DNA of 32,000 nucleotides from Candidatus Scalindua sp. (GTDB lineage Bacteria > Planctomycetota > Brocadiia > Brocadiales > Scalinduaceae): positions 810,001-842,000 of the forward strand of contig JALDRA010000001.1 of assembly GCA_031316235.1 (NCBI GenBank), written 5' to 3'. Positions within the stretch are counted from its first letter, which is position 1. Each line of letters starts with the position of its first letter. Of this stretch, positions 5,580-31,281 are shown piece after piece. A program made the translations under genes and the position numbers. The notes beneath the pieces were generated by a model, which saw only the letters and a list, made by a program, of their open reading frames with translations, did no database searches and was not told the DNA's origin.

Positions 5580-5699
5580 TCATTATGGCCTCCATCAATA
5601 ATCGACCGCTTTAATCCGGGAATGGCTGCGACAAGAGCATTTGCGTGTCTCACCGGGAGGGAGCATTCCCGATTTTTTGTAAAATATAATAAAAAGATC

Positions 5700-5728
5700 T
5701 TGACTTCCTCGTTGCTTTCAACGATAAT
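5700..5728 (+). promoter_or_regulatory. Putative sigma70 promoter of the IS-borne MTase (TTGACT, 17-nt spacer, GATAAT) with a GATC abutting the -35
   Basis: TTGACT at 5700-5705, GATAAT at 5723-5728 and the ATG at 5735, which is only 6 nt after the -10, so the mRNA may be leaderless. No SD is visible. The arrangement is conserved in all three copies. Confidence 0.45.
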
Positions 5729-5734
5729 ACTTCC

Positions 5735-6400
5735 ATGAATTATCCAGGCGGCAAAGGAGGAGTATTCCAAAAGTTAATCAATCTTATGCCACCCCATGAT
5801 GTCTACATAGAGACTCATTTGGGTGGTGGTGCTGTTATACGGAACAAACGGCCTGCCAGGAGTAATTTCGGGATAGAAATTGACTCGGAAGTTGTTGAGA
5901 TGTGGACGAATATGCATCCAATAGATTTTGAACTGGTCCATGATGACGCAATTAATTATCTGAATAATTATCATTTCAAAGGAAAAGAACTGGTATATTG
6001 TGACCCACCATATCTTCGCGAGACAAGGAAAAAATATGGACAGCTATATAAATATGATTATAGCCGTGCGCAGCACATCGAACTTCTGGAAGTTTTGAAA
6101 ACTCTTCCCTGCATGGTGATGATATCCGGTTACGAGTCAACCTTATACAAAGAATCATTACGTAGCTGGCAGACACATTCTTTTCAGGCCGTCTGTCATC
6201 ATGGCGTAGCAACTGAGTGGTTATGGATGAACTATAGTGTTCCGGTAGAACTGCACGATTATCGTTATCTTGGCAATGACTTTCGTGAGCGGGAACGGAT
6301 AAAGAGGAAGACCAGAAGGTGGACAGCGAAACTTCAATCCATGCCTGTATTAGAGCGCCAGGCGTTACTATCCGCCATAGATGTAGTCAGGGAGCGATAG
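5735..6400 (+). CDS. DNA N6-adenine methyltransferase, D12/Dam-like, 221 aa (IS passenger)
   Basis: N-terminal YPGGK, motif I ETHLGGGAV and motif IV DPPY (VYCDPPYL). Near-identical to 25331-25996. Confidence 0.8.
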   Translation: MNYPGGKGGVFQKLINLMPPHDVYIETHLGGGAVIRNKRPARSNFGIEIDSEVVEMWTNMHPIDFELVHDDAINYLNNYHFKGKELVYCDPPYLRETRKKYGQLYKYDYSRAQHIELLEVLKTLPCMVMISGYESTLYKESLRSWQTHSFQAVCHHGVATEWLWMNYSVPVELHDYRYLGNDFRERERIKRKTRRWTAKLQSMPVLERQALLSAIDVVRER

Positions 6401-6574
6401 AAGTCTTTTGAAAGGGGGAATTTTTGGCTTGAGAAAGATAGAGTCATCCGATAACTGGAGAGCTTTATTTTATGGTTTTTTAGACACTCGATTGGATAAG
6501 ATTGGGGAAGAGTACTCAATGGAAGATTTAGGAGAAATCTCAAAAGCTGTTTTCGAAGAGAGAGCGAAGATTGT

Positions 6575-8107: not shown

Positions 8108-8856
8108 GGTCAAACCTTGATTAGTGATCTAATCTCTGTTATCCTCTTATTCAATTTTCCATCTTTCGTTATCTTTGATTTCACAATAGCTACCCTTCGA
8201 CTTATGGATGAATAACCAAGACCAAACAAATTACCAATTTCCTGGTTATTATACCAACCGGTACTCCACAGAAGATAGATTAATAAATCACGATTTAATT
8301 TATCTGAATCACTTATCCTTGAGGATCGTAAAAAAACACCCGTATCGCACTTTAAAACTTTTGCCGCTATCTTCAGAATTTTTTCAGGATTAGTATCTCT
8401 TAATACTTGCCTTTTTTGAGGAATTTCAACATCTGGGTTTTCTGACAAATACTGAGACTTTATACGGTCAATAAATTCCTGGGAACCAAAAAAAGGCCAT
8501 GTCGAAAATCTTCCCACATTTTTGTTTCTTCTTTGGAGTAACTTTGTACCATTTTCCTATATGCCAGGTGCTTGTTTTTTGTATCGAAAAGAGAAAGAAT
8601 AGGCTTTGTAATCAACCACTCCGGTGATTTCTTGCCATAAGCATAAATAGAATAACTGCTCCATGGATAGTCAGCCAGTCTCCTGACTATTCCTGCACGC
8701 AGAGGATTTCTATGGATATAACAGGAGAGAAGCATCAGGTATTCATCATTTTCTATAAGAAAGCTTTTGAAGCGCCCTTGAAAAAGATGTCCATTTCGCT
8801 TGTGTTTAATATTATATTGACGTGTATAGGTTGTTCCAAACCATTGCATGCCTTTT
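8108..8856 (-). pseudogene. Y1-DnaA_C element copy, 5'-truncated and frameshifted
   Basis: ORFs 8110-8517 and 8460-8849 together match residues ~79-321 of the 15352-16317 product. The run of A at 8478-8484 is 7 nt long versus 8 nt in the intact copy. The left terminal repeat GGTCAAACCTTGATTAGTGATC is present, while the HUH region and right end are absent. Confidence 0.85.
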
Positions 8857-9357
8857 AGTGAAGAGACTCCATAGTTACTCAGTAATTAATTATTCTTCTT
8901 GAGGAAATGTAGTTTAAAAATGCTATAAAGTTTCAGGAGTAGAATTGATGCTAAGAAGAGCTTTTGCTCTATCATCAAAAGTATCCTTCACACGTAAGTC
9001 TTCAATACGTGCAGATAACAAGCCTTTGCACCCGGGGCGCACCATTATCACCATTCTGCATCATTGTTCTCGAACCGTTTCAAATAAATTCAATCATACG
9101 ATAATTTACTACCCTGCTTTTGTTTCAAAAAACTCATGGGTAAAAACGTACATCCTCGTAAAAGCTGCATACTTTTAGCCATACATGACCCTAGTTAAAC
9201 ATATTATGCATTTAGCAGAGAAGCTCACCAATTAAAACATATTTACAAACGATAAAGGTAAACTCTGAGTGATCAGGGGACGTAAAGTAACAGGGTCTTA
9301 ACGCATATACAGGAAAAAGACTGTTTTACTGAATAGATAGTTTTTCTGCCGAAGATG

Positions 9358-10568: not shown

Positions 10569-10687
10569 AAAAAATTCCTTTTTATTGCCATTTTTTATAA
10601 ATTTTGTAGTAACAGTAATGCTTATTGAATAATACAGAATCAGATAAGTCAAGGTAAATTAGTTGGATAAAGTAAAAGGGGAGCATT

Positions 10688-11470
10688 CCCGATTTTTTGT
10701 AAAATATAATAAAAAGATCTTGACTTCCTCGTTGCTTTCAACGATAATACTTCCATGAATTATCCAGGCGGCAAAGGAGGAGTATTCCAAAAGTTAATCA
10801 ATCTTATGCCACCCCATGATGTCTACATAGAGACTCATTTGGGTGGTGGTGCTGTTATACGGAACAAACGGCCTGCCAGGAGTAATTTTGGGATAGAAAT
10901 TGACTCGGAAGTTGTTGAGATGTGGACGAATATGCATCCAATAGATTTTGAACTGGTCCATGATGACGCAATTAATTATCTGAATAATTATCATTTCAAA
11001 GGAAAAGAACTGGTATATTGTGACCCACCATATCTTCGCGAGACAAGGAAAAAATATGGACAGCTATATAAATATGATTATAGCCGTGCGCAGCATCGAA
11101 CTTCTGGAAGTTTTGAAAACTCTTCCCTGCATGGTGATGATATCCGGTTACGAGTCAACCTTATACAAAGAATCATTACGTAGCTGGCAGACACATTCTT
11201 TTCAGGCCGTCTGTCATCATGGCGTAGCAACTGAGTGGTTATGGATGAACTATAGTGTTCCGGTAGAACTGCACGATTATCGTTATCTTGGCAATGACTT
11301 TCGTGAGCGGGAACGGATAAAGAGGAAGACCAGAAGGTGGACAGCGAAACTTCAATCCATGCCTGTATTAGAGCGCCAGGCGTTACTATCCGCCATAGAT
11401 GTAGTCAGGGAGCGATAGAAGTCTTTTGAAAGGGAGAATTTTTGGCTTGTGTGGTCAGAAGAAAGATCAG
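10688..11470 (+). mobile_element. IS with methyltransferase passenger, copy 2: left end plus MTase pseudogene; transposase lost
   Basis: Same left end and promoter as copy 1. Similarity to the intact copy fades about 50 nt after the MTase stop. Confidence 0.85.
10755..11418 (+). pseudogene. Dam-like MTase with a 2-bp deletion
   Basis: CAGCACATCGAAC in copy 1 (about 6071-6083) reads CAGCATCGAAC here (about 11091-11101). This splits the gene into ORFs 10755-11183 and 11020-11418. Total length is 664 nt versus 666 nt. Confidence 0.9.
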
Positions 11471-11593
11471 AGAACCGGTTATCTGAACTTAACCTTCGTA
11501 TCTTCTACAAATCGTCTACTCCCTACTGCGATATGTGCTGTCCAACAGGACTCTCTCCTGAGGCCATTATCATTAATGGCAGCTATGAGTAAC

Positions 11594-15349: not shown

Positions 15350-16382
15350 GGTCAAACCTTGATTAGTGATCTAATCTCCGTTACCCTCTTATTCAATTTT
15401 CCATCTTTCGTTATCTTTGATTTCATAATAGCTACCCTTCGACTTATGGATGAATAACCAAGACCAAACAAATTACCAATTTCCTGGTTATTATACCAAC
15501 CGGTACTCCACAGAAGATAGATTAATAAATCACGATTTAATTTATCTGAATCACTTATCCTTGAGGATCGTAAAAAATCACCCGTATCGCACTTTAAAAC
15601 TTTTGCCGCTATCTTCAGAATTTTTTCAGGATTATTATCTCTTAATACTTGCCTTTTTTGAGGAATTTCAACATCTGGGTTTTCTGACAAATACTGAGAC
15701 TTTATACGGTCAATAAATTCCTGGGAACCAAAAAAAAGGCCATGTCGAAAATCTTCCCATATTTTTGTTTCTTCTTTAGAGTAACTTTGTACCATTTTCC
15801 TATATGCCAGGTGCTTGTTTTTTGTATCGAAAAGAGAAAGAATAGGCTTTGTAATCAACCACTCCGGTGATTTCTTGTCATAAGCATAAATAGAATAACT
15901 GCTCCATGGATAGTCAGCCAGTCTCCTCACTATTCCTGCACGCAGAGGATTTCTATGGATATAACAGGAGAGAAGCATAAGGTATTCATCATTTTCTATA
16001 AGAAAGCTTTTGAAGCGCCCTTGAAAAAGATGTCTATTTCGCTTGTGTTTAATATTATATTGACGTGTATAGGTTGTTCCAAACCATTGCATGCCTTTAG
16101 AAATATTGGGCTTATTAGTTTTCAGTAACAAATGGTAATGATTATCCATGAGGGCATAAGCGTAAACTTCAATAGCAAACCTGTCTGACATTTCCCCCAG
16201 AGTGTCCAGGAATAAAATACGGTCATCGTTATCTCGAAAAATATCCCTTCGTTCATTTCCTCGTGATAAGATATGATAGTAAGCCCCTTCAAATTCAATA
16301 CGCCATTGTCTTGCCATAAAAGACACAGTAGCACAAGCTACCTTTTAATGTCAAGCGATTAATCACTGTTCAAGGTTTGACC
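15350..16382 (-). mobile_element. Y1-DnaA_C element, intact copy (1033 bp) with terminal inverted repeats
   Basis: Left end GGTCAAACCTTGATTAGTGATCTAATC. Reverse complement of the right end GGTCAAACCTTGAACAGTGATTAATC. The TGA stop of the gene lies inside the left repeat. Confidence 0.8.
15352..16317 (-). CDS. HUH/Y1 (IS200-like, RayT-like) transposase fused to a C-terminal DnaA-domain-IV-like HTH, 321 aa
   Basis: ATG at 16317 (MARQWRIEFEGAYYHILSRGNERRDIF). HUH is at DNHYHLLL and the catalytic-Tyr region at CYIHRNPLRAG. The C-terminal RDLLIYLLWSTGWYNNQEIGNLFGLGYSSISRRV resembles the DnaA C-terminal HTH. Confidence 0.8.
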   Translation of the reverse strand: MARQWRIEFEGAYYHILSRGNERRDIFRDNDDRILFLDTLGEMSDRFAIEVYAYALMDNHYHLLLKTNKPNISKGMQWFGTTYTRQYNIKHKRNRHLFQGRFKSFLIENDEYLMLLSCYIHRNPLRAGIVRRLADYPWSSYSIYAYDKKSPEWLITKPILSLFDTKNKHLAYRKMVQSYSKEETKIWEDFRHGLFFGSQEFIDRIKSQYLSENPDVEIPQKRQVLRDNNPEKILKIAAKVLKCDTGDFLRSSRISDSDKLNRDLLIYLLWSTGWYNNQEIGNLFGLGYSSISRRVAIMKSKITKDGKLNKRVTEIRSLIKV

Positions 16383-23203: not shown

Positions 23204-23525
23204 CTATTGTTCGGCTTTTATTCCTACTTTTTTAACAAAACCAGTAACTTCTGAATAGATTTCAAGCGCTTCTGTCCTATCCGGTTCCCCAAGATCATGA
23301 ACAGCCTGATTTCGCATTTTAATAGCTCGTCTTAATTTCTTATAGTCTTCGACAGATATTTGATATTTAATCTTTACCTCTGGTATATCTTCGAAGACTT
23401 CAGGTTTTGAAGCTCGAATTTTTACTCCTGCTCTAATGTCCAGTTCTTTTTGTATGTCCCGAAAAAATTTGGAAAGTACCTCACCATGAGTCTCGCTTCT
23501 CTTTAGCTTAAGATTAACTACATGG
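23204..23525 (-). pseudogene. C-terminal fragment of an unidentified protein (no start codon)
   Basis: Open frame ...LKLKRSETHGEVLSKFFRDIQKELD...LRRAIKMRNQAVHDLGEPDRTEALEIYSEVTGFVKKVGIKAEQ stop. It begins right where the SIR2-like frame ends. Confidence 0.35.
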
Positions 23526-23850
23526 TATCAAATGGAAGTCCAGCAAAAGAAATGTGGGAATCTCCTGGTTCAATCGAATCAGAATGAAGAGCGTTACGAA
23601 TCGCTTCGATTAATTGTACGCGACCGAATCGATGTTCATATGCAGAAGCAACAGATGGACCAGGTTGCTTTGGGGACACATTTGAAGCATCGGCGAGAAC
23701 TTCAGTAAGCCCTTGCCAATCTGGCATCATTTTTTCACCTGGAAGCTTTGTATTTAAAGAAAACCCTGCCTCTACAAAAGGTAGACACTTACCATTTGCT
23801 ATATCATCTAGTAATGGCTGAGGTATTTTCATCAATATTTCCTTTGCCAA
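23518..23850 (-). pseudogene. SIR2-family (ThsA-like N-terminal) protein fragment, about 105 aa
   Basis: The likely start is the ATG at 23832 (MKIPQPLLDDIANGKCLPFVEAGFSLN...). PFVEAGFS resembles the FAGAGLS nucleotide-binding loop. The fragment stops at AGLPFDTM, just before where the TTNYD motif would follow. Confidence 0.5.
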
Positions 23851-23888
23851 ACGTTTCGCATGGGTGCATTCCCAATTTATTGTAAAAT

Positions 23889-25307
23889 TTATTTAACAAT
23901 TCGAAGACTTCTCTTAAATTTTTTATTTTTAATTCTTTCCTGGTCGTCCCTTTTGTATTTTTCGATAACTTTATCGTAAGTACCGTTATATTTCGCGCAT
24001 CTGATCTTGAGTATGTTATTAGCGTTTTGGATATACCACCAAGCTCCTGATCGTTTAAGCCTTGTATGGCTAATGAATTTATTGGCGCTTTCAATAGCAC
24101 CGCTGCCAATGTGATATCCTCCACGCTTGGCGGAACTGTAATCCATCTTTTCACAATGATTTGTGAGATAGGTATAAAACTTGTCAATTTTATCTTGAAT
24201 ATCTTGAGTTCGGGCTTTCATCTTTCCAAGACCGCCAAGCACCTCTTCATGGTAACCATAATATATTCTTGTCAGAGTCGCCTCACACCACTGTAGAGAC
24301 TCTCTTGTCTCTTTTCCGTAATGGGCATTGGCTACACCATGGACATACTCCGAGCAATGGTAATAGTCGAGAATCTCTTTTGCCGAGGGAAATATTTCTT
24401 TACATCGGTTCCAGATCCAGGGAGCACCGTCTCCTATAATTCCCAGGCGTATCTTCTCGTGGGGAATAAGCCCGGCTTCTTTGATCTTAACCAAGTATTC
24501 TGCTAATTCGTGATCTGCACAAACCTGGTGCCAGCTAATTAAATGAATAATAGTTTGACCATCGATGAGATACAGTCTAAAACCTTTAATCTCTTTGTAT
24601 TCTCCCTTGCCTCTTTTCCCTTTACGGGGGTGAGGACTTGGCTCGGGACGCATCGGCCCGTGGGCTCCATCCAGGGCAAGCATCATAATGGGACGACGAA
24701 ACTTATCCACTGAGAGGTTTTCTATCTGCTTATCAATCTCTTCCCTGGGCGGGCAGACATCCAAAATTCCCACTTCTTGACCAATGGCATTCGTGGTCTC
24801 ATGCATATGATGTTCACTCAGCTTTACTCCGGTTATTCTCTCGTAGGTTTCGCTGGCCGTCTCATAGGCCGTTTCGCTTGACAACCAGGCTTCCACATCT
24901 TGCACATCATATTGCTTCGATGATTCAGACAATCCAAGGGCTTCGTCTAAAGGATAGTATCCTAAACGACACGCTCTGCAATAAAAATAAGGCCTGGTTA
25001 ATTCAAATTGTCCGGCAAGGGTTTGGATAGTCTTGGATTGTTTTCCTTGTCTTTGCATACCCTTGCCGCATTCGGGGCAATCGCAGCTTTGCTGATTCAA
25101 TAAATGTCCAAATTTCCTCTCTATGAACCCAAGAATCAGTTGTCCTAATATCTCCGCTCTCTCTTCGAAAACAGCTTTTGAGATTTCTCCTAAATCTTCC
25201 ATTGAGTACTCTTCCTCAATCTTATCCAATCGGGTGTCTAAAAAACCATAAAATAAAGCTCTCCAGTTATCGGATGACTCTATCTTTCTTTTCACCACAC
25301 AAGTCAA
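23889..25307 (-). CDS. DDE transposase, ISKra4/ISLre2-like (family unverified), 472 aa
   Basis: TTG start with GGGGG five nt upstream. Zinc module CDCPECG...YFYCRAC. Motifs ALDGAHGP, IIGDGAPWIWN and ILDYYHCSEY. Confidence 0.75.
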   Translation of the reverse strand: MTCVVKRKIESSDNWRALFYGFLDTRLDKIEEEYSMEDLGEISKAVFEERAEILGQLILGFIERKFGHLLNQQSCDCPECGKGMQRQGKQSKTIQTLAGQFELTRPYFYCRACRLGYYPLDEALGLSESSKQYDVQDVEAWLSSETAYETASETYERITGVKLSEHHMHETTNAIGQEVGILDVCPPREEIDKQIENLSVDKFRRPIMMLALDGAHGPMRPEPSPHPRKGKRGKGEYKEIKGFRLYLIDGQTIIHLISWHQVCADHELAEYLVKIKEAGLIPHEKIRLGIIGDGAPWIWNRCKEIFPSAKEILDYYHCSEYVHGVANAHYGKETRESLQWCEATLTRIYYGYHEEVLGGLGKMKARTQDIQDKIDKFYTYLTNHCEKMDYSSAKRGGYHIGSGAIESANKFISHTRLKRSGAWWYIQNANNILKIRCAKYNGTYDKVIEKYKRDDQERIKNKKFKRSLRIVK

Positions 25308-25330
25308 AAATACCCCCTTTCAAAAGACTT

Positions 25331-25996
25331 CTATCGCTCCCTGAATACATCTATGGCGAATAGTAACGCCTGACGTTCTAATACAGGCATGGATTTAAGT
25401 TTCGCTGTCCACCTTTTGGTCTTCCTCTTTATCCGTTCCCGCTCACGAAAGTTATTGCCAAGATAACGATAGTCGTGCAGTCCTACCGGAACACTATAGT
25501 TCATCCATAACCACTCCGTTGCTACGCCATGATGACAGACGGCCTGAAAAGAATGTGTCTGCCAGCTACGCAATGATTCTTTGTATAAGGTTGACTCGTA
25601 ACCGGATATCATCACCATGCAGGGAAGAGTTTTCAAAACTTCCAAAAGTTCGATGTGCTGCGCACGGCTATAGTCATATTTATATAGCCGTCCATACTTT
25701 TTCCTTGTCTCGCGAAGATATGGTGGGTCACAATATACCAGTTCTTTTCCTGTGAAATGATAATTATTCAGATAATTAATTGCGTCATCATGGACCAGTT
25801 CAAAACCTATTGGATGCATATTTGTCCACATCTCAACAACTTCCGAGTCAATTTCTATCCCAAAATTACTCCTGGCAGGTCGTTTGTTCCGTATAACAGC
25901 GCCACCACCCAAATGAGTCTCTATGTAGACATCATGGGGTGGCATAAGATTGATTAACTTTTGGAATACACCTCCTTTGCCGCCTGGATAATTCAT
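25331..25996 (-). CDS. DNA N6-adenine methyltransferase, D12/Dam-like, 221 aa (IS passenger)
   Basis: Same protein as 5735-6400 with a few substitutions (YPGGK, ETHLGGGAV, DPPY). Confidence 0.8.
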   Translation of the reverse strand: MNYPGGKGGVFQKLINLMPPHDVYIETHLGGGAVIRNKRPARSNFGIEIDSEVVEMWTNMHPIGFELVHDDAINYLNNYHFTGKELVYCDPPYLRETRKKYGRLYKYDYSRAQHIELLEVLKTLPCMVMISGYESTLYKESLRSWQTHSFQAVCHHGVATEWLWMNYSVPVGLHDYRYLGNNFRERERIKRKTKRWTAKLKSMPVLERQALLFAIDVFRER

Positions 25997-26197
25997 GGAA
26001 GAATTATCGTTGAAAACAACGAGGAAGTCAAGATCTTTTATTATATTTTACAAAAAATCGGGAATGCTCCCTTTCGCATAAGCAACCACCACCTGCTTGT
26101 ATGCTTGCAAGAGAGGCTTGAAGCGGCAGCCCCAATAAATATTAAACCGCAAATATCTGGTGGTTGGCTTCATGCGCTTGTAGGATCTCTCCAATTT

Positions 26198-26369: not shown

Positions 26370-27393
26370 GGTCAAACCTTGATCTGTGATTTAATCATTG
26401 TTATTCTTTCCTTGATCTTACCATCTTTAGATTTCACGATAGTTACTCGACGACTTATAGATGAATAACAAAGGCCAAATAATTTACCAATCTCCTGATT
26501 GCTATACCACCCTGTACTCCATAAAAAATAGATTAATATATCACGATCGTATTTATTTTCTTCGCTTATCCTTGAGGATTGTATAAAATCATTTGTATTA
26601 CACTTTAATACCTCTGCCGCTTTCTTCAGAAGTGATTCAGGGTTGGTATTTCTTAATACCTGACGCTTTTGTGGGACTTCAACATCAGTTTTTTCTGTCA
26701 AATATTTAGACCTTATTTGGTCGACAAATTTCTGGGAACCCAAAATAATACCGTGTCGAAAATCTTCCCATATCCTCTTCTCTTCCTTGGAATAGCTTTG
26801 CACTATTTCCCTGTATGCTTTGTGCTTCTCTTTTGTCTCCACACATGAAAAGATAGGCCCCGTACATAACCACTCCGGTGACTTCTTCCCATAAGCATAA
26901 ATTGGATAACTGCTCCATGGATAATCTACTAATCTCCTGACAATTCCGGCCCGCAACGGATTTCTATGAATATAGCAAGAAAGCCGTATTAGGTATTCAT
27001 CATTTTCGATGAGAAAGTTTTTGAAGCGTCCTTGAAACAAGTGACCGCTTCGCTTATGCTTTACATTGTATCTACGTGTATAAGTAGTACCAAACCATTG
27101 CATGCTTTTAGAGATATTGGAATTATTGGTTTTTAGTAGCAAATGATAATGATTATCCATAAGAACGTATGCATAAACCTCAACATCAAACCTGTCAGCC
27201 ATACTTCCTAAAGTCTCTAGAAACAAAATACGATCGTCACTATCCTGAAAAATATCCCTTCGCTCATTACCGCGTGATAAGATGTGATAATAAGCTCCCT
27301 TATACTCTATGCGCCATTGTCTTGCCATGGTAGACAAGGTATCACAAACCACCTTTAATCGTCAAGCATATAATCACATATCAAGGTGTGACC
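26370..27393 (-). mobile_element. Y1-DnaA_C element, second intact but diverged copy (1024 bp)
   Basis: Left end GGTCAAACCTTGATCTGTGATTTAATC. Right end ATCACATATCAAGGTGTGACC. Confidence 0.8.
26372..27328 (-). CDS. HUH/Y1 transposase fused to a DnaA-domain-IV-like HTH, 318 aa
   Basis: ATG at 27328 (MARQWRIEYKGAYYHILSRGNERRDIF). Motifs DNHYHLLL and CYIHRNPLRAG. C-terminal RDILIYFLWSTGWYSNQEIGKLFGLCYSSISRRV. Confidence 0.8.
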   Translation of the reverse strand: MARQWRIEYKGAYYHILSRGNERRDIFQDSDDRILFLETLGSMADRFDVEVYAYVLMDNHYHLLLKTNNSNISKSMQWFGTTYTRRYNVKHKRSGHLFQGRFKNFLIENDEYLIRLSCYIHRNPLRAGIVRRLVDYPWSSYPIYAYGKKSPEWLCTGPIFSCVETKEKHKAYREIVQSYSKEEKRIWEDFRHGIILGSQKFVDQIRSKYLTEKTDVEVPQKRQVLRNTNPESLLKKAAEVLKCNTNDFIQSSRISEENKYDRDILIYFLWSTGWYSNQEIGKLFGLCYSSISRRVTIVKSKDGKIKERITMIKSQIKV

Positions 27394-27399
27394 CCATTT

Positions 27400-27470
27400 T
27401 TAAAAACAAAAAATTTAAAAGAAATCTTCGAATTGTTAAATAAATTTACAAAAAAATAGGAATGATCCCC
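27400..27470 (+). mobile_element. Right-end stub of a fourth copy of the MTase-carrying IS
   Basis: The reverse complement GGGGATCATTCCTATTTTTTTGTAAATTTATTTAACAATTCGAAGATTTC matches 23862-23910. It is cut off by the Y1-DnaA_C element ending at 27393. Confidence 0.7.
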
Positions 27471-27522: not shown

Positions 27523-27575
27523 CACATCTTGATTAGTAAACTCAAAAAATAAGTATAATCACTAATCAAGATGTG
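27523..27575. repeat. Mini-palindrome built from two Y1-DnaA_C-type terminal repeats
   Basis: CACATCTTGATTAGT (27523-27537) and ACTAATCAAGATGTG (27561-27575) form a perfect 15-bp inverted repeat, followed by GCCCC. Confidence 0.6.
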
Positions 27576-28079
27576 GCCCCAATTCAACAGGAATTAACAC
27601 AAAAACTGAAGAATACAGAAAAAGAAGTATTGTCAGTATCCAGAAATGATTTTCATATGTCTCATTTAATGAGCATTCCAGGCATTGGCCACTTTTCCGC
27701 AGCCTTAATCAAATCGGAAATCATAGATATCTCTCGTTTCGCTTCGTTTAACCGGTTATGTGCGTATGCAGGGCTTGCCCCTCGTGTCAGTGCGAGTGCA
27801 AACAAAACCTTCCATGGACCGTTAAACAAGAACAGGAGTAAAAATCTCCAATGGATATTGATAGAAAATGTTTATCATTTTATAAAAGCTATTCCAAAGA
27901 TGCAGGATAAATACGAAACACTCAAGAAGAGAAAAGAGCATAATACTGCGAAGGTAGCCCTTGCCAGGGAGATGCTCAAGATTGTCTATCATGTACTCAA
28001 AGAACAGAGGCCATTTTATCTTGATACAAAAAAATCTAAAATCCAGTCGGTGGCGGCTCCTGCACTCAGTGGGGTCTGA
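27573..28079 (+). pseudogene. IS110-family transposase, C-terminal domain only
   Basis: MSIPGIGHFSAALIKSEIIDISRFASFNRLCAYAGLAPRVSASANKTFHGPLNKNRSKNLQWIL is Transposase_20-like. The N-terminal DEDD domain is absent. Confidence 0.75.
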
Positions 28080-29685: not shown

Positions 29686-29811
29686 AATGCGGAGTTGAGG
29701 AGCAACATTGAAATGTTGTCTGACTCAAACGACTTGTTCGCCCCGCCTGCGGCGGTCAGGCCGTTGCTCCTCAACTCCGCATTCGCACCGCCGCAGGCGG
29801 GGCGAACAAGT
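29686..29811. repeat. Two interleaved perfect inverted repeats (21 bp and 24 bp) in a GC-rich island between higB and intI
   Basis: Pair A is 29686-29706 with 29763-29783. Pair B is 29732-29755 with 29788-29811. The order along the sequence is A, B, A', B'. Confidence 0.9.
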
Positions 29812-29922: not shown

Positions 29923-31281
29923 ATGATAACTATTCCATCAGAAGTATCTGTTCGTTTCAATTCTGCTTTGGCAAAAAACAGAATTTCTAAAGAGCACCAG
30001 AATCATTATAGAAAATGGTTGCAGTACTATCTTGATTTTTGCCAAAAGTATCATTTCCAAAGTATTCAACCTGAAAGCCTCCAGAATTTTTTGAGAAAGT
30101 TGGGGAAAAAACGCCAGACACGAGAACAGCAAAAGCAGGCTTCTCATGCAATTTCTCTTTACTACTCTATTGCTCACACCGTAGCGGATCCTGTTGAGAA
30201 ATTACGGTCAGGTAGGATTCAGAATGAGCATATTTCTCCAGGGAATAAGGATTTATCTGATGAAGGCATGGAATGGCAAGCCGCGCTTGGTAATCTTTCA
30301 TCAGAAATTAAGATACGGCACTATTCACCGAAAACACTAAAGGCGTATACCCTGTGGGTCAGGCAATTTCAGGCCTTTACACGGAAAAAGGAGCCACAGC
30401 TATTGTCTTCAGCCGAGGTAAAAGAGTTTTTAACTTTTCTGGCCATAAAGCGAAAGGTCTCTGCCTCAACACAAAACCAGGCTTTTAACGCCCTCCTCTT
30501 CTTTTACCGACATGTCATCAAAAAGGATTTTGAAAATTTAAAGGATACTCCCAGGGCCAAGAGGACACGTTATATACCTGTTGTCCTGTCTCGACCAGAA
30601 ATAGACGAAATATTTATGCATCTATTATATCCATATGATTTAGTCTCTAAGCTTCTCTATGGGTGCGGACTGAGATTGTTTGAATGCTTGAACCTCCGCG
30701 TTCAAAATTTTAATTTTGACACATCTATTCTCACGATTCATGATGGAAAAGGGAAAAAAGATAGGACGGTACCTCTACCGGAGACAATCGTGCCTGATTT
30801 AAAGGCACATCTTGAACGGGTAAAGAACCTCCATCAAATAGATCTGGACGCAAATTATTCCGGAGTTTTCCTGTTTGACTTGTTGGATAAGAAATATAGA
30901 AATTGTGCAAAGGAGCTGGTCTGGCAGTGGTTTTTCCCCGCAAAAACATTGACTTTAGTTCCGGAAACAGGAGAATTTAGACGGTATCATCTACATGAAT
31001 CGCATGTGCAGAAGGCCATTAAACGGGCGGTTGGAAAGTCAAAGATAGCTAAGCGCGCCTCAGCACATACGTTCCGCCATAGCTTCGCCTCTCATCTGTT
31101 GCAAGCCAATTATGACATACGTACTATTCAGGAACTGCTGGGGCATAGCAATGTCAGGACCACGATGATTTATACCCATACGATAAAGAGGCAGACAGTA
31201 AAAGAGGCAAAGAGTCCTCTCGACTTTTCGCATCTGAAACGACCCACAGAATATAAGCAGAGGGTAACAACATCCCCCTGA
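29923..31281 (+). CDS. intI: Integron-type tyrosine recombinase IntI, 452 aa, with a ~115-aa N-terminal extension
   Basis: Catalytic R..K..HxxR..H..Y residues are present (GLRLFECLNLR, HDGKGKKDR, HTFRHSFASH, LGHSNVRTTMIYTH). The IntI-specific insert is LLDKKYRNCAKELVWQWFFPAKTLTLVPETGEFRRYHLHESHVQKA. An internal Met at 30268 would give a canonical 337-aa IntI. Confidence 0.85.
   Translation: MITIPSEVSVRFNSALAKNRISKEHQNHYRKWLQYYLDFCQKYHFQSIQPESLQNFLRKLGKKRQTREQQKQASHAISLYYSIAHTVADPVEKLRSGRIQNEHISPGNKDLSDEGMEWQAALGNLSSEIKIRHYSPKTLKAYTLWVRQFQAFTRKKEPQLLSSAEVKEFLTFLAIKRKVSASTQNQAFNALLFFYRHVIKKDFENLKDTPRAKRTRYIPVVLSRPEIDEIFMHLLYPYDLVSKLLYGCGLRLFECLNLRVQNFNFDTSILTIHDGKGKKDRTVPLPETIVPDLKAHLERVKNLHQIDLDANYSGVFLFDLLDKKYRNCAKELVWQWFFPAKTLTLVPETGEFRRYHLHESHVQKAIKRAVGKSKIAKRASAHTFRHSFASHLLQANYDIRTIQELLGHSNVRTTMIYTHTIKRQTVKEAKSPLDFSHLKRPTEYKQRVTTSP

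Follow-up and report, generated by a model that had tools for sequence, protein, structure and literature searches.

An insertion sequence (IS) is usually viewed as a transposase between two ends. The ISKra4 group has been classed with the prokaryotic Mutator-like ISs, as p-MULT 4, and the article that describes it mentions four ISKra4 elements with additional genes of unknown function (Guerillot et al., 2014, PMC3942029). A methyltransferase passenger has been described for IS220 of the IS1380 family, a transporter IS (tIS; Siguier et al., quoted in PMC11891212). Here, a 32,000-nucleotide (nt) stretch of the anammox bacterium Candidatus Scalindua sp. (assembly GCA_031316235.1, contig JALDRA010000001.1, positions 810,001–842,000 of the forward strand), referred to below as the window, was analysed for an ISKra4-family element that carries a DNA methyltransferase gene (hereafter the methylase). 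The methylase and its promoter constitute a portable cassette of ~700 base pairs (bp), which supplies the first gene inside the IS ends in several unrelated DDE families.

As in the tIS description quoted in PMC11891212, the window element is an ordinary IS with one extra methyltransferase gene between its ends. The methylase lies between the ends and moves with them, both in this element and in IS66-, ISL3- and ISKra4-type relatives. The difference is that a single cassette, with its own promoter, takes the same position across IS families, a feature that is not part of the quoted description.

An ISKra4-family IS with a methylase as its first gene

Reading of the window, combined with its self-comparison, delimited an intact unit of 2,210 bp at positions 23862–26071 (Table 1). 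Its terminal inverted repeats (TIRs) start with GGGWGC, and GGGTGCATTCCCAATTTATTGTAAAAT is identical at 24 of 27 positions to the reverse complement of 26045–26071. The unit is flanked by the target-site duplication (TSD) TTTCGCAT, which is perfect over 8 bp and is not extendable to 9 bp. A preliminary description of the window had proposed these bounds and had placed within them a co-oriented methylase and transposase, 221 and 472 amino acids (aa) in length and 23 nt apart. The repeats and the coordinates were verified, with both genes on the minus strand. Its further claim that the methylase belongs to the mobile unit is borne out by the TIR and TSD bounds, by identical copies elsewhere and by relatives with the same layout. 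A terminator scan of the unit revealed no minus-strand terminator-like sites between the methylase and transposase genes.

The source assembly encodes four identical methylase/transposase pairs (MDR4503198/199, 385/386, 573/574 and 720/721), as counted from the adjacency of protein accession numbers. The whole unit was also present, with proteins 100% identical and with different flanks, on two contigs from other samples (L001 and L002). Because identical pairs recur in the genome and on contigs with other flanks, the unit is real. We conclude that it is an intact, recently active ISKra4-family IS with the methylase as its first gene.

When the unit and one copy of the duplication were removed, a longer minus-strand open frame spanned the rebuilt insertion site. 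The frame of a 110-aa minus-strand open reading frame (ORF; window 23518–23850) runs on upstream through this empty site. The element may therefore have interrupted a gene in its 5′ part or in its leader.

The transposase matched the NCBIfam model for ISKra4 (NF033572) with 241.5 bits against a cut-off of 205, residues 32–443 aligning with positions 15–421 of the 422 in the model; this full-length match would imply the DDE catalytic triad of the Mutator-like fold. It also matched Pfam UPF0236, has an N-terminal zinc module (CxCxxC...CxxC), and is identical to a protein that PGAP names ISKra4 family transposase. The ends of the element resemble those of the group: they begin GGG, as do the ends of ISAcas3 and ISAcce1 in the PMC3942029 supplement, and they are similar to those of ISAcce1 in particular (GGGTGCATTTAATTTCC...). 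The TSD is 8 bp in the window element and in an ISKra4-type relative (L005), as compared with 9 bp in two ISKra4-group rows of that supplement. The methylase cassette sets the window element apart from the group, and neither the text of PMC3942029 nor the examined part of its supplement mentions a methylase.

Relatives lacking the methylase were also found. The closest sister with homologous ends, L164, is 1,588 bp long. In another relative (L168:102–1995; 1,894 bp), the transposase is 70% identical and the TIRs are intact, the body of the methylase gene is gone, and the cassette promoter is retained together with a decayed methylase 5′ end (ATG to ATA) directly before the transposase. Since the transposase passes the ISKra4 model and methylase-less sisters with homologous ends exist, the novelty does not lie in a new IS family. 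The preliminary description, made from the sequence alone, could match this gene content to no known IS; the transposase belongs to a recognized family. It had also reasoned that copies without the methylase would argue against a unit; such copies are present, yet only as more distant sisters or as one deletion derivative.

The methylase matched Pfam PF02086 (D12) over residues 83–148 only (35.8 bits, cut-off 22), and its score against the NCBIfam 'dam' model TIGR00571 (42.4) was below the cut-off of 114.85. A profile of 30 homologues, compared with the PDB, matched Dam and DpnM in two blocks, profile positions 2–68 aligning with E. coli Dam 9–75 and positions 82–146 with Dam 174–242. The DNA-recognition domain of Dam, ~100 residues that form a helical bundle with a beta-hairpin between motifs III and IV, is replaced by ~13 residues. 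The AlphaFold model likewise contains no inserted recognition domain; in it, two C-terminal helices follow a methyltransferase core of plain Rossmann type, and the best structural matches of the model were Dam structures (TM about 0.5), the closest being E. coli Dam. The basic two-helix region (residues ~183–219) is conserved among homologues. By these comparisons, the methylase is a Dam-related N6-adenine methyltransferase without the Dam DNA-recognition domain, an absence that suggests relaxed specificity; it is probably an N6-methyladenine (m6A) enzyme of that kind.

Residues E26, G30 and G32 and the D90-P-P-Y93 motif are invariant in alignments of 30 diverse and 43 close homologues. S-adenosylmethionine (AdoMet) motif I, with its GxG, and catalytic motif IV (DPPY) are thus intact; the preliminary description would have counted a lack of catalytic residues against function. 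The methylase is very likely an active enzyme, as no aligned homologue departs from DPPY or from the glycine-rich AdoMet motif. A known defence system was considered and rejected: in a PADLOC scan, the matches were limited to generic Type II/orphan methylases and to PD-Lambda-5_B, the latter weak and partial.

One cassette in several IS families

Methylase relatives were collected from 80 genomic and 80 metagenomic loci, with counts taken over 162 loci, and ORFs downstream of the methylase were clustered and then classified by curated models and Pfam. A transposase lay directly downstream on the same strand at 93 of the 162 loci; at none was the nearest transposase upstream of the methylase or opposed to it. 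The downstream gene was of IS66 type at 45 loci (L019 and L046 above the curated cut-off, the others IS66-like and below it), ISKra4 at 12 loci in addition to the window (above cut-off), ISL3 at 12 (L015 above cut-off) and IS4 at three (L131 above cut-off). Ten loci had an IS701-like transposase scoring below the cut-off, two, including L062, an IS630-like one (Pfam DDE_3), and 11 an unclassified DDE group with weak DDE_Tnp_1 matches only. At least four curated IS families, and probably seven, have thus acquired the cassette, all at the same place. An ISKra4 transposase followed only the closest methylases, those at least about 77% identical to that of the window, and one outlier at 63%.

The bounds of several carriers could be read directly. 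The methylase lies inside the TIRs of the ISKra4-type element L005, which has the 8-bp TSD GGAGAAAG. IS66-type copies from Longimicrobiales, 2,277 bp in length with the TIR GTAACTACTCACCCCC, are flanked by 8-bp duplications at four different sites; a second, alphaproteobacterial IS66-type lineage provided four further 8-bp duplications, and the ISL3-type L106 has a 22-bp TIR and the TSD TTAAATAT. Duplications were unconfirmed at L001, L004, L058 and L107, whose contigs may be chimeric or rearranged. As the methylase is located within TIRs and TSDs in three families with independent insertions, chance adjacency is excluded, and a chance neighbour or compound element was rejected as an explanation.

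Nucleotide similarity between the window element and carriers of other families (66–76%) is confined to unit positions ~33–724. This block extends from just before the −35 hexamer to shortly before the methylase stop codon. In a neighbour-joining tree of the methylases, a simple distance tree, ISKra4, ISL3 and IS4 clades were nested among IS66-linked ones, and one ISKra4-linked copy grouped with an IS701-like copy. This interleaving of transposase families points to repeated swapping of the cassette between them.

Numerous bacterial phyla, as well as archaeal bins, contain methylases 57–80% identical to that of the window. Many carriers are on contigs of 2–4 kb, as would be expected of collapsed repeats, and long contigs back several bacterial hosts (Brocadiaceae, Nitrospirae, Longimicrobiales and Alphaproteobacteria). 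No description of a promoter–methylase cassette that takes the first position in IS after IS of different families was found in the searchable literature, a search that did not extend to ISfinder, TnCentral and REBASE.

Relatives outside ISs were also encountered. Proteobacterial non-IS methylases (45–53% identical) overlap by 4 nt a gene for a 281-aa Ogg-like helix-hairpin-helix DNA glycosylase, as at L036:3212–8950; the same layout was found at L029, L030, L031, L038, L039, L048, L049, L050, L052 and L064. QueC-like proteins, PfkB kinase/nucleoside 2-deoxyribosyltransferase fusions and nitroreductase-like proteins are encoded beside the pair, with a dGTPase-type HD protein in addition at L036. 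This locus looks like an undescribed DNA-modification or defence island. Further non-IS relatives occur in P2-like phages.

The 40 nt that precede the methylase ATG are conserved in every context. In the window element, they include the best promoter-like site of the unit, with 10 of 12 matches: a −35 TTGACT (26031–26026), a 17-nt spacer and a −10 GATAAT (26008–26003), the ATG (25996) following 6 nt past the −10 element. The promoter spacer is occupied by a dyad, TCGTTG-TTTT-CAACGA (26022–26007). Among 118 unique upstream sequences, 82 had a recognizable −35 hexamer, and their consensus was cTTGACAtcatC-N12-GATaaT. The distance from the first T of TTGACA to the ATG was 35 or 36 nt in 80 of the 82, and the −10 element ends 6–7 nt before the start codon, which is the geometry of a leaderless mRNA.

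Sigma-70 recognition alone leaves two features of this consensus unaccounted for. In 80 of 82 sequences the −10 element starts with G rather than T, and the spacer position 13 nt upstream of that G is C, again in 80 of 82. These two positions, C11 and G24, mirror each other and were complementary in all 82, two double changes included. Neighbouring mirrored positions were also complementary more often than in shuffled columns; for positions 12–23 complementarity was observed in 39 of 82 sequences as compared with 23.3 expected, a value reached by none of 2,000 shuffles (no correction for ancestry). In non-IS relatives, the dyad is a perfect 10-bp palindrome, ATCATCGTCA-N4-TGACGATGAT.

A candidate control circuit and its alternatives

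The sequence data are compatible with a self-regulated, mostly leaderless promoter that drives a methylase–transposase operon, the portable cassette encoding a methylase of relaxed specificity. We put the probability of this reading at about one half. The cassette promoter, of near-consensus sigma-70 type, would give a leaderless mRNA and would transcribe the methylase and transposase jointly, with a separate ribosome-binding site ahead of the weak TTG start of the latter. The dyad between −35 and −10, ATYATC-N12-GATRAT, would be the control site for the cassette's own protein, the one protein shared by all contexts; it takes in the non-consensus G of GATAAT and the conserved C. The protein might bind there, possibly by means of its conserved basic helices at the C terminus, or it might methylate the two mirrored GAT triplets, one of which would hold the adenine at −11 within the −10 element. 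The transposase would be made in step with this feedback, abundantly upon arrival in a naive cell or shortly after replication and sparsely when the cell has become methylated. A need for tight self-control would be explained if the enzyme is broadly acting and potentially toxic, and the same enzyme may pre-methylate host and vector DNA against restriction. The preliminary description had suggested that the methylase could spread an epigenetic mark, blunt restriction systems or regulate transposition of its own element. The conserved promoter and dyad, together with the invariant gene order, lend circumstantial support to a regulatory link. A stronger form of the proposal, in which the cassette is a self-contained epigenetic control module with a self-silenced promoter, recruited repeatedly by unrelated transposases and providing both host-independent control, in which a burst in naive hosts or just after replication gives way to silence, and broad anti-restriction methylation, appears unlikely at present.

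Several points weigh against a self-regulated cassette promoter. Promoter, leaderless start and operon are consensus-based predictions, the structural model of the methylase is of moderate confidence only (mean pLDDT 67.7), and loss of the Dam domain is no proof of low specificity. The covariation counts ignore shared ancestry, and many host assignments, including all of the archaeal ones (2–4 kb contigs), rest on the binning of metagenome-assembled genomes. Non-IS relatives have the strongest dyad, its arms being 10 bp long, and in many IS copies the dyad has partly decayed, which weakens the case for tight operator control inside ISs. The leaderless layout is not universal either, since an IS66-type sub-lineage has a longer leader with a Shine-Dalgarno sequence before the methylase ATG; at L010, L095, L098, L105, L120, L121 and L125 the cassette promoter lies ~60 nt upstream.

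The chief competing explanation regards the methylase as nothing but anti-restriction cargo. Broad methylation of host, plasmid or phage DNA would guard outgoing DNA from restriction in the next host, or the host from incoming restriction systems, and would raise the horizontal spread and retention of any carrier IS, with no effect on the transposase. The strongly conserved catalytic motifs fit this explanation, as does the spread of 57–80% identical methylases over so many phyla, which implies frequent horizontal transfer, and non-IS relatives reside in P2-like phages and in islands of DNA-modification or defence type. Non-specific Dam-related methylases have been proposed as stand-ins for Mom and its anti-restriction role in transposable prophages of Mu type (PMC3299994), and the truncated window copy at 5659–6571 keeps an intact methylase without a transposase. 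Mere cargo, however, should be free to take any place and orientation, whereas the methylase is always first and co-oriented where a transposase adjoins it (93 loci versus none). The block of homology always takes in the promoter and dyad, and L168 has retained the promoter even after deletion of the methylase. As an IS is a small restriction target, the benefit to it would also be indirect. On balance, cargo without a regulatory role is a serious but doubtful explanation.

A further alternative is a switch of the IS10/Tn5 type that the element encodes for itself. Sites in the ends or the promoter would be marked so that only hemimethylated, freshly replicated copies transpose, which would make replication-coupled control independent of the host. 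Control by Dam is established for IS10, IS50 and IS903, the gene order places the transposase under the cassette promoter, and that promoter contains the conserved GAT at −12 to −10 and a mirrored ATC. A methylase acting on a site shared by the IS ends was rejected as unlikely, as a comparison of the TIRs of ISKra4-, IS66- and ISL3-type carriers (GGGAGCATTCCC, GTAACTACTCACC and GGCTCAACCGGAAC) revealed no common motif; control would thus be confined to the promoter. There, a GATC abuts the −35 hexamer of the window element; the close relatives L003, L083 and L005 have GTTC, GTAC or another sequence in its place. A classical Dam/GATC switch is therefore unlikely, a point that also counts against methylation-based self-control, and the self-encoded switch as a whole appears improbable. 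We consider it highly improbable that the methylase-like protein is a DNA-binding accessory factor or repressor for which catalysis is irrelevant, or that ISs have repeatedly landed beside a common gene. The conserved C-terminal helices, to which no role is assigned, and the operator-like dyad would suit an accessory factor; against it, neither DPPY nor the AdoMet motif varies in any context, and repeated landing is countered by the enclosure of the gene within TIRs and TSDs described above.

The surrounding DNA and relation to known systems

The window is a dumping ground for mobile DNA amid housekeeping genes (RtcB, threonine dehydratase and ribonucleotide reductase). The preliminary description had noted the left end with the methylase at 5659 and 10688, and a right-end stub at 27400–27470. 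Both left-end copies recur, the second starting at 10679 and having a frameshifted methylase; the stub exists, its alignment ending at 27464. In the copy at 5659–6571, the methylase ORF (5735–6400; 221 aa) is intact and only the first ~170 nt of the transposase gene (about 56 codons) remain. In that at 10679–11472, the methylase is split into ORFs 10755–11183 and 11020–11418, annotated by PGAP as two hypothetical proteins; the frameshift was seen in the repeat spacing as a 2-nt offset relative to the copy at 5659–6571.

The three IS200-like genes are 78–99% identical and are flanked by GGGGTCAAACCTTGATTAGTGAT-type inverted repeats; one copy separates the intact IS from the solo end stub. A dispersed repeat with the core TATACTCATCTCATRATGGTTTTCGGATAAAATCCGAGATAAAWTTGAGCG and an internal hairpin (TTTCGGAT...ATCCGAGA) occurs in five good and two weaker copies, one of them directly preceded by a c-di-GMP-I riboswitch match. 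Hairpins lie ahead of the gene for a tyrosine recombinase.

Table 1. Features of the ISKra4-family element, its other copies and neighbouring repeats and mobile genes, in window coordinates.
Feature	Position	Strand	Description
TSD, copy 1	23854–23861		TTTCGCAT; identical 8-mer at 26072–26079
TIR, transposase-distal end of operon (right end in element orientation)	23862–23888	−	GGGTGCATTCCCAATTTATTGTAAAAT; begins GGG
ISKra4-family transposase gene	23889–25307	−	472 aa; TTG start
Spacer between methylase and transposase genes	25308–25330	−	23 nt; purine-rich ribosome-binding site AAAGGGGGT before TTG
Methylase gene	25331–25996	−	221 aa; motifs YPGGK, ETHLGGGAV, DPPY
Promoter-like cassette head	26003–26031	−	−35, dyad in spacer, −10
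TIR, methylase-proximal end (left end in element orientation)	26045–26071	−	GGGAGCATTCCCGATTTTTTGTAAAAT
TSD, copy 2	26072–26079		TTTCGCAT
Truncated copy with left end, promoter, methylase and transposase start	5659–6571	+	95.7% identity, 923 nt, versus unit 1289–2210
Truncated copy with left end, promoter and frameshifted methylase	10679–11472	+	96.0% identity over 796 nt
Solo remnant of transposase-side end, inverted orientation	27400–27464	+	89% identity, 66 nt, versus unit positions 6–71
IS200-like Y1 transposase-type genes	8110–8849, 15352–16326, 26372–27352	−	324–326 aa, long C-terminal extension; first copy split in two
IS110-family transposase fragment	27573–28079	+	
Hairpins	29686–29811		Two nested perfect inverted repeats, 21 and 25 bp
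Tyrosine recombinase gene	29923–31281	+	452 aa
c-di-GMP-I riboswitch match	9247–9353	+	Score 37.1 versus Rfam gathering score 35
Dispersed repeat	1452, 7309, 9351, 16571, 17610, 21116, 31348		Each ~55–90 nt

In IS10/Tn10, IS50/Tn5 and IS903, transposition is tied to replication through adenine methylation of the ends or of the promoter that serves the transposase. The same logic underlies the mechanism proposed for the window element, with the difference that those elements use host Dam and GATC sites, whereas this one encodes its own methylase. If the methylase does control transposase expression, the cassette would be a new, portable way for transposons to sense a new host. Self-regulation with a similar layout is known from restriction–modification systems: for methyltransferases and controller proteins such as M.SsoII, M.MspI and C.PvuII, a dyad within the promoter of the gene itself and leaderless transcripts serve to time and limit expression after cell entry. 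The cassette resembles them in the dyad inside its own promoter and in its predicted leaderless geometry. The self-regulating methyltransferases of such systems bind through an N-terminal helix-turn-helix, which the window methylase lacks; the IS also has no restriction partner, and the non-IS relatives are paired with an Ogg-like glycosylase.

The Dam-related enzymes Hia5, Hin1523 and Nme1821 of Mu-like transposable prophages have DPPY and FxGxG motifs and an aberrant recognition region; Hia5 and Hin1523 methylate adenine in almost any context and were proposed to be functional analogues of the Mom anti-restriction function (PMC3299994). By that description, the window methylase is similar in being Dam-related, in having an aberrant recognition region and in travelling aboard a transposing element. 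Hia5 has 281 aa with a divergent region at ~80–170, as compared with 221 aa and ~13 residues at that place in the window methylase. This precedent, by analogy, supports the anti-restriction idea. If the methylase is a broad anti-restriction enzyme, ISs would actively promote horizontal transfer and would contribute to environmental methylomes an m6A signal whose source has been overlooked. With only 221 aa and no recognition domain, a Dam-type enzyme might also serve as a small tool for adenine methylation.

Taken singly, the window element adds to a known IS family a new member whose passenger is unusual; in context, it carries a cross-family accessory cassette. Cross-family accessory genes such as TnpB proved central to element persistence. 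TnpB and IscB of the IS200/IS605 and IS607 families are an accessory family tied to unrelated transposases, a pattern that indicated a role in the life cycle rather than cargo. The likeness to the methylase cassette is conceptual only, one accessory gene family recurring with unrelated transposases; the accessory protein is a nuclease there and a methylase here, and the transposase classes are different. Recurrence of the cassette suggests a general, undescribed role in IS spread or self-control. Should the cassette be a self-contained control module, it would represent a general IS accessory system with a reach comparable to that of TnpB.

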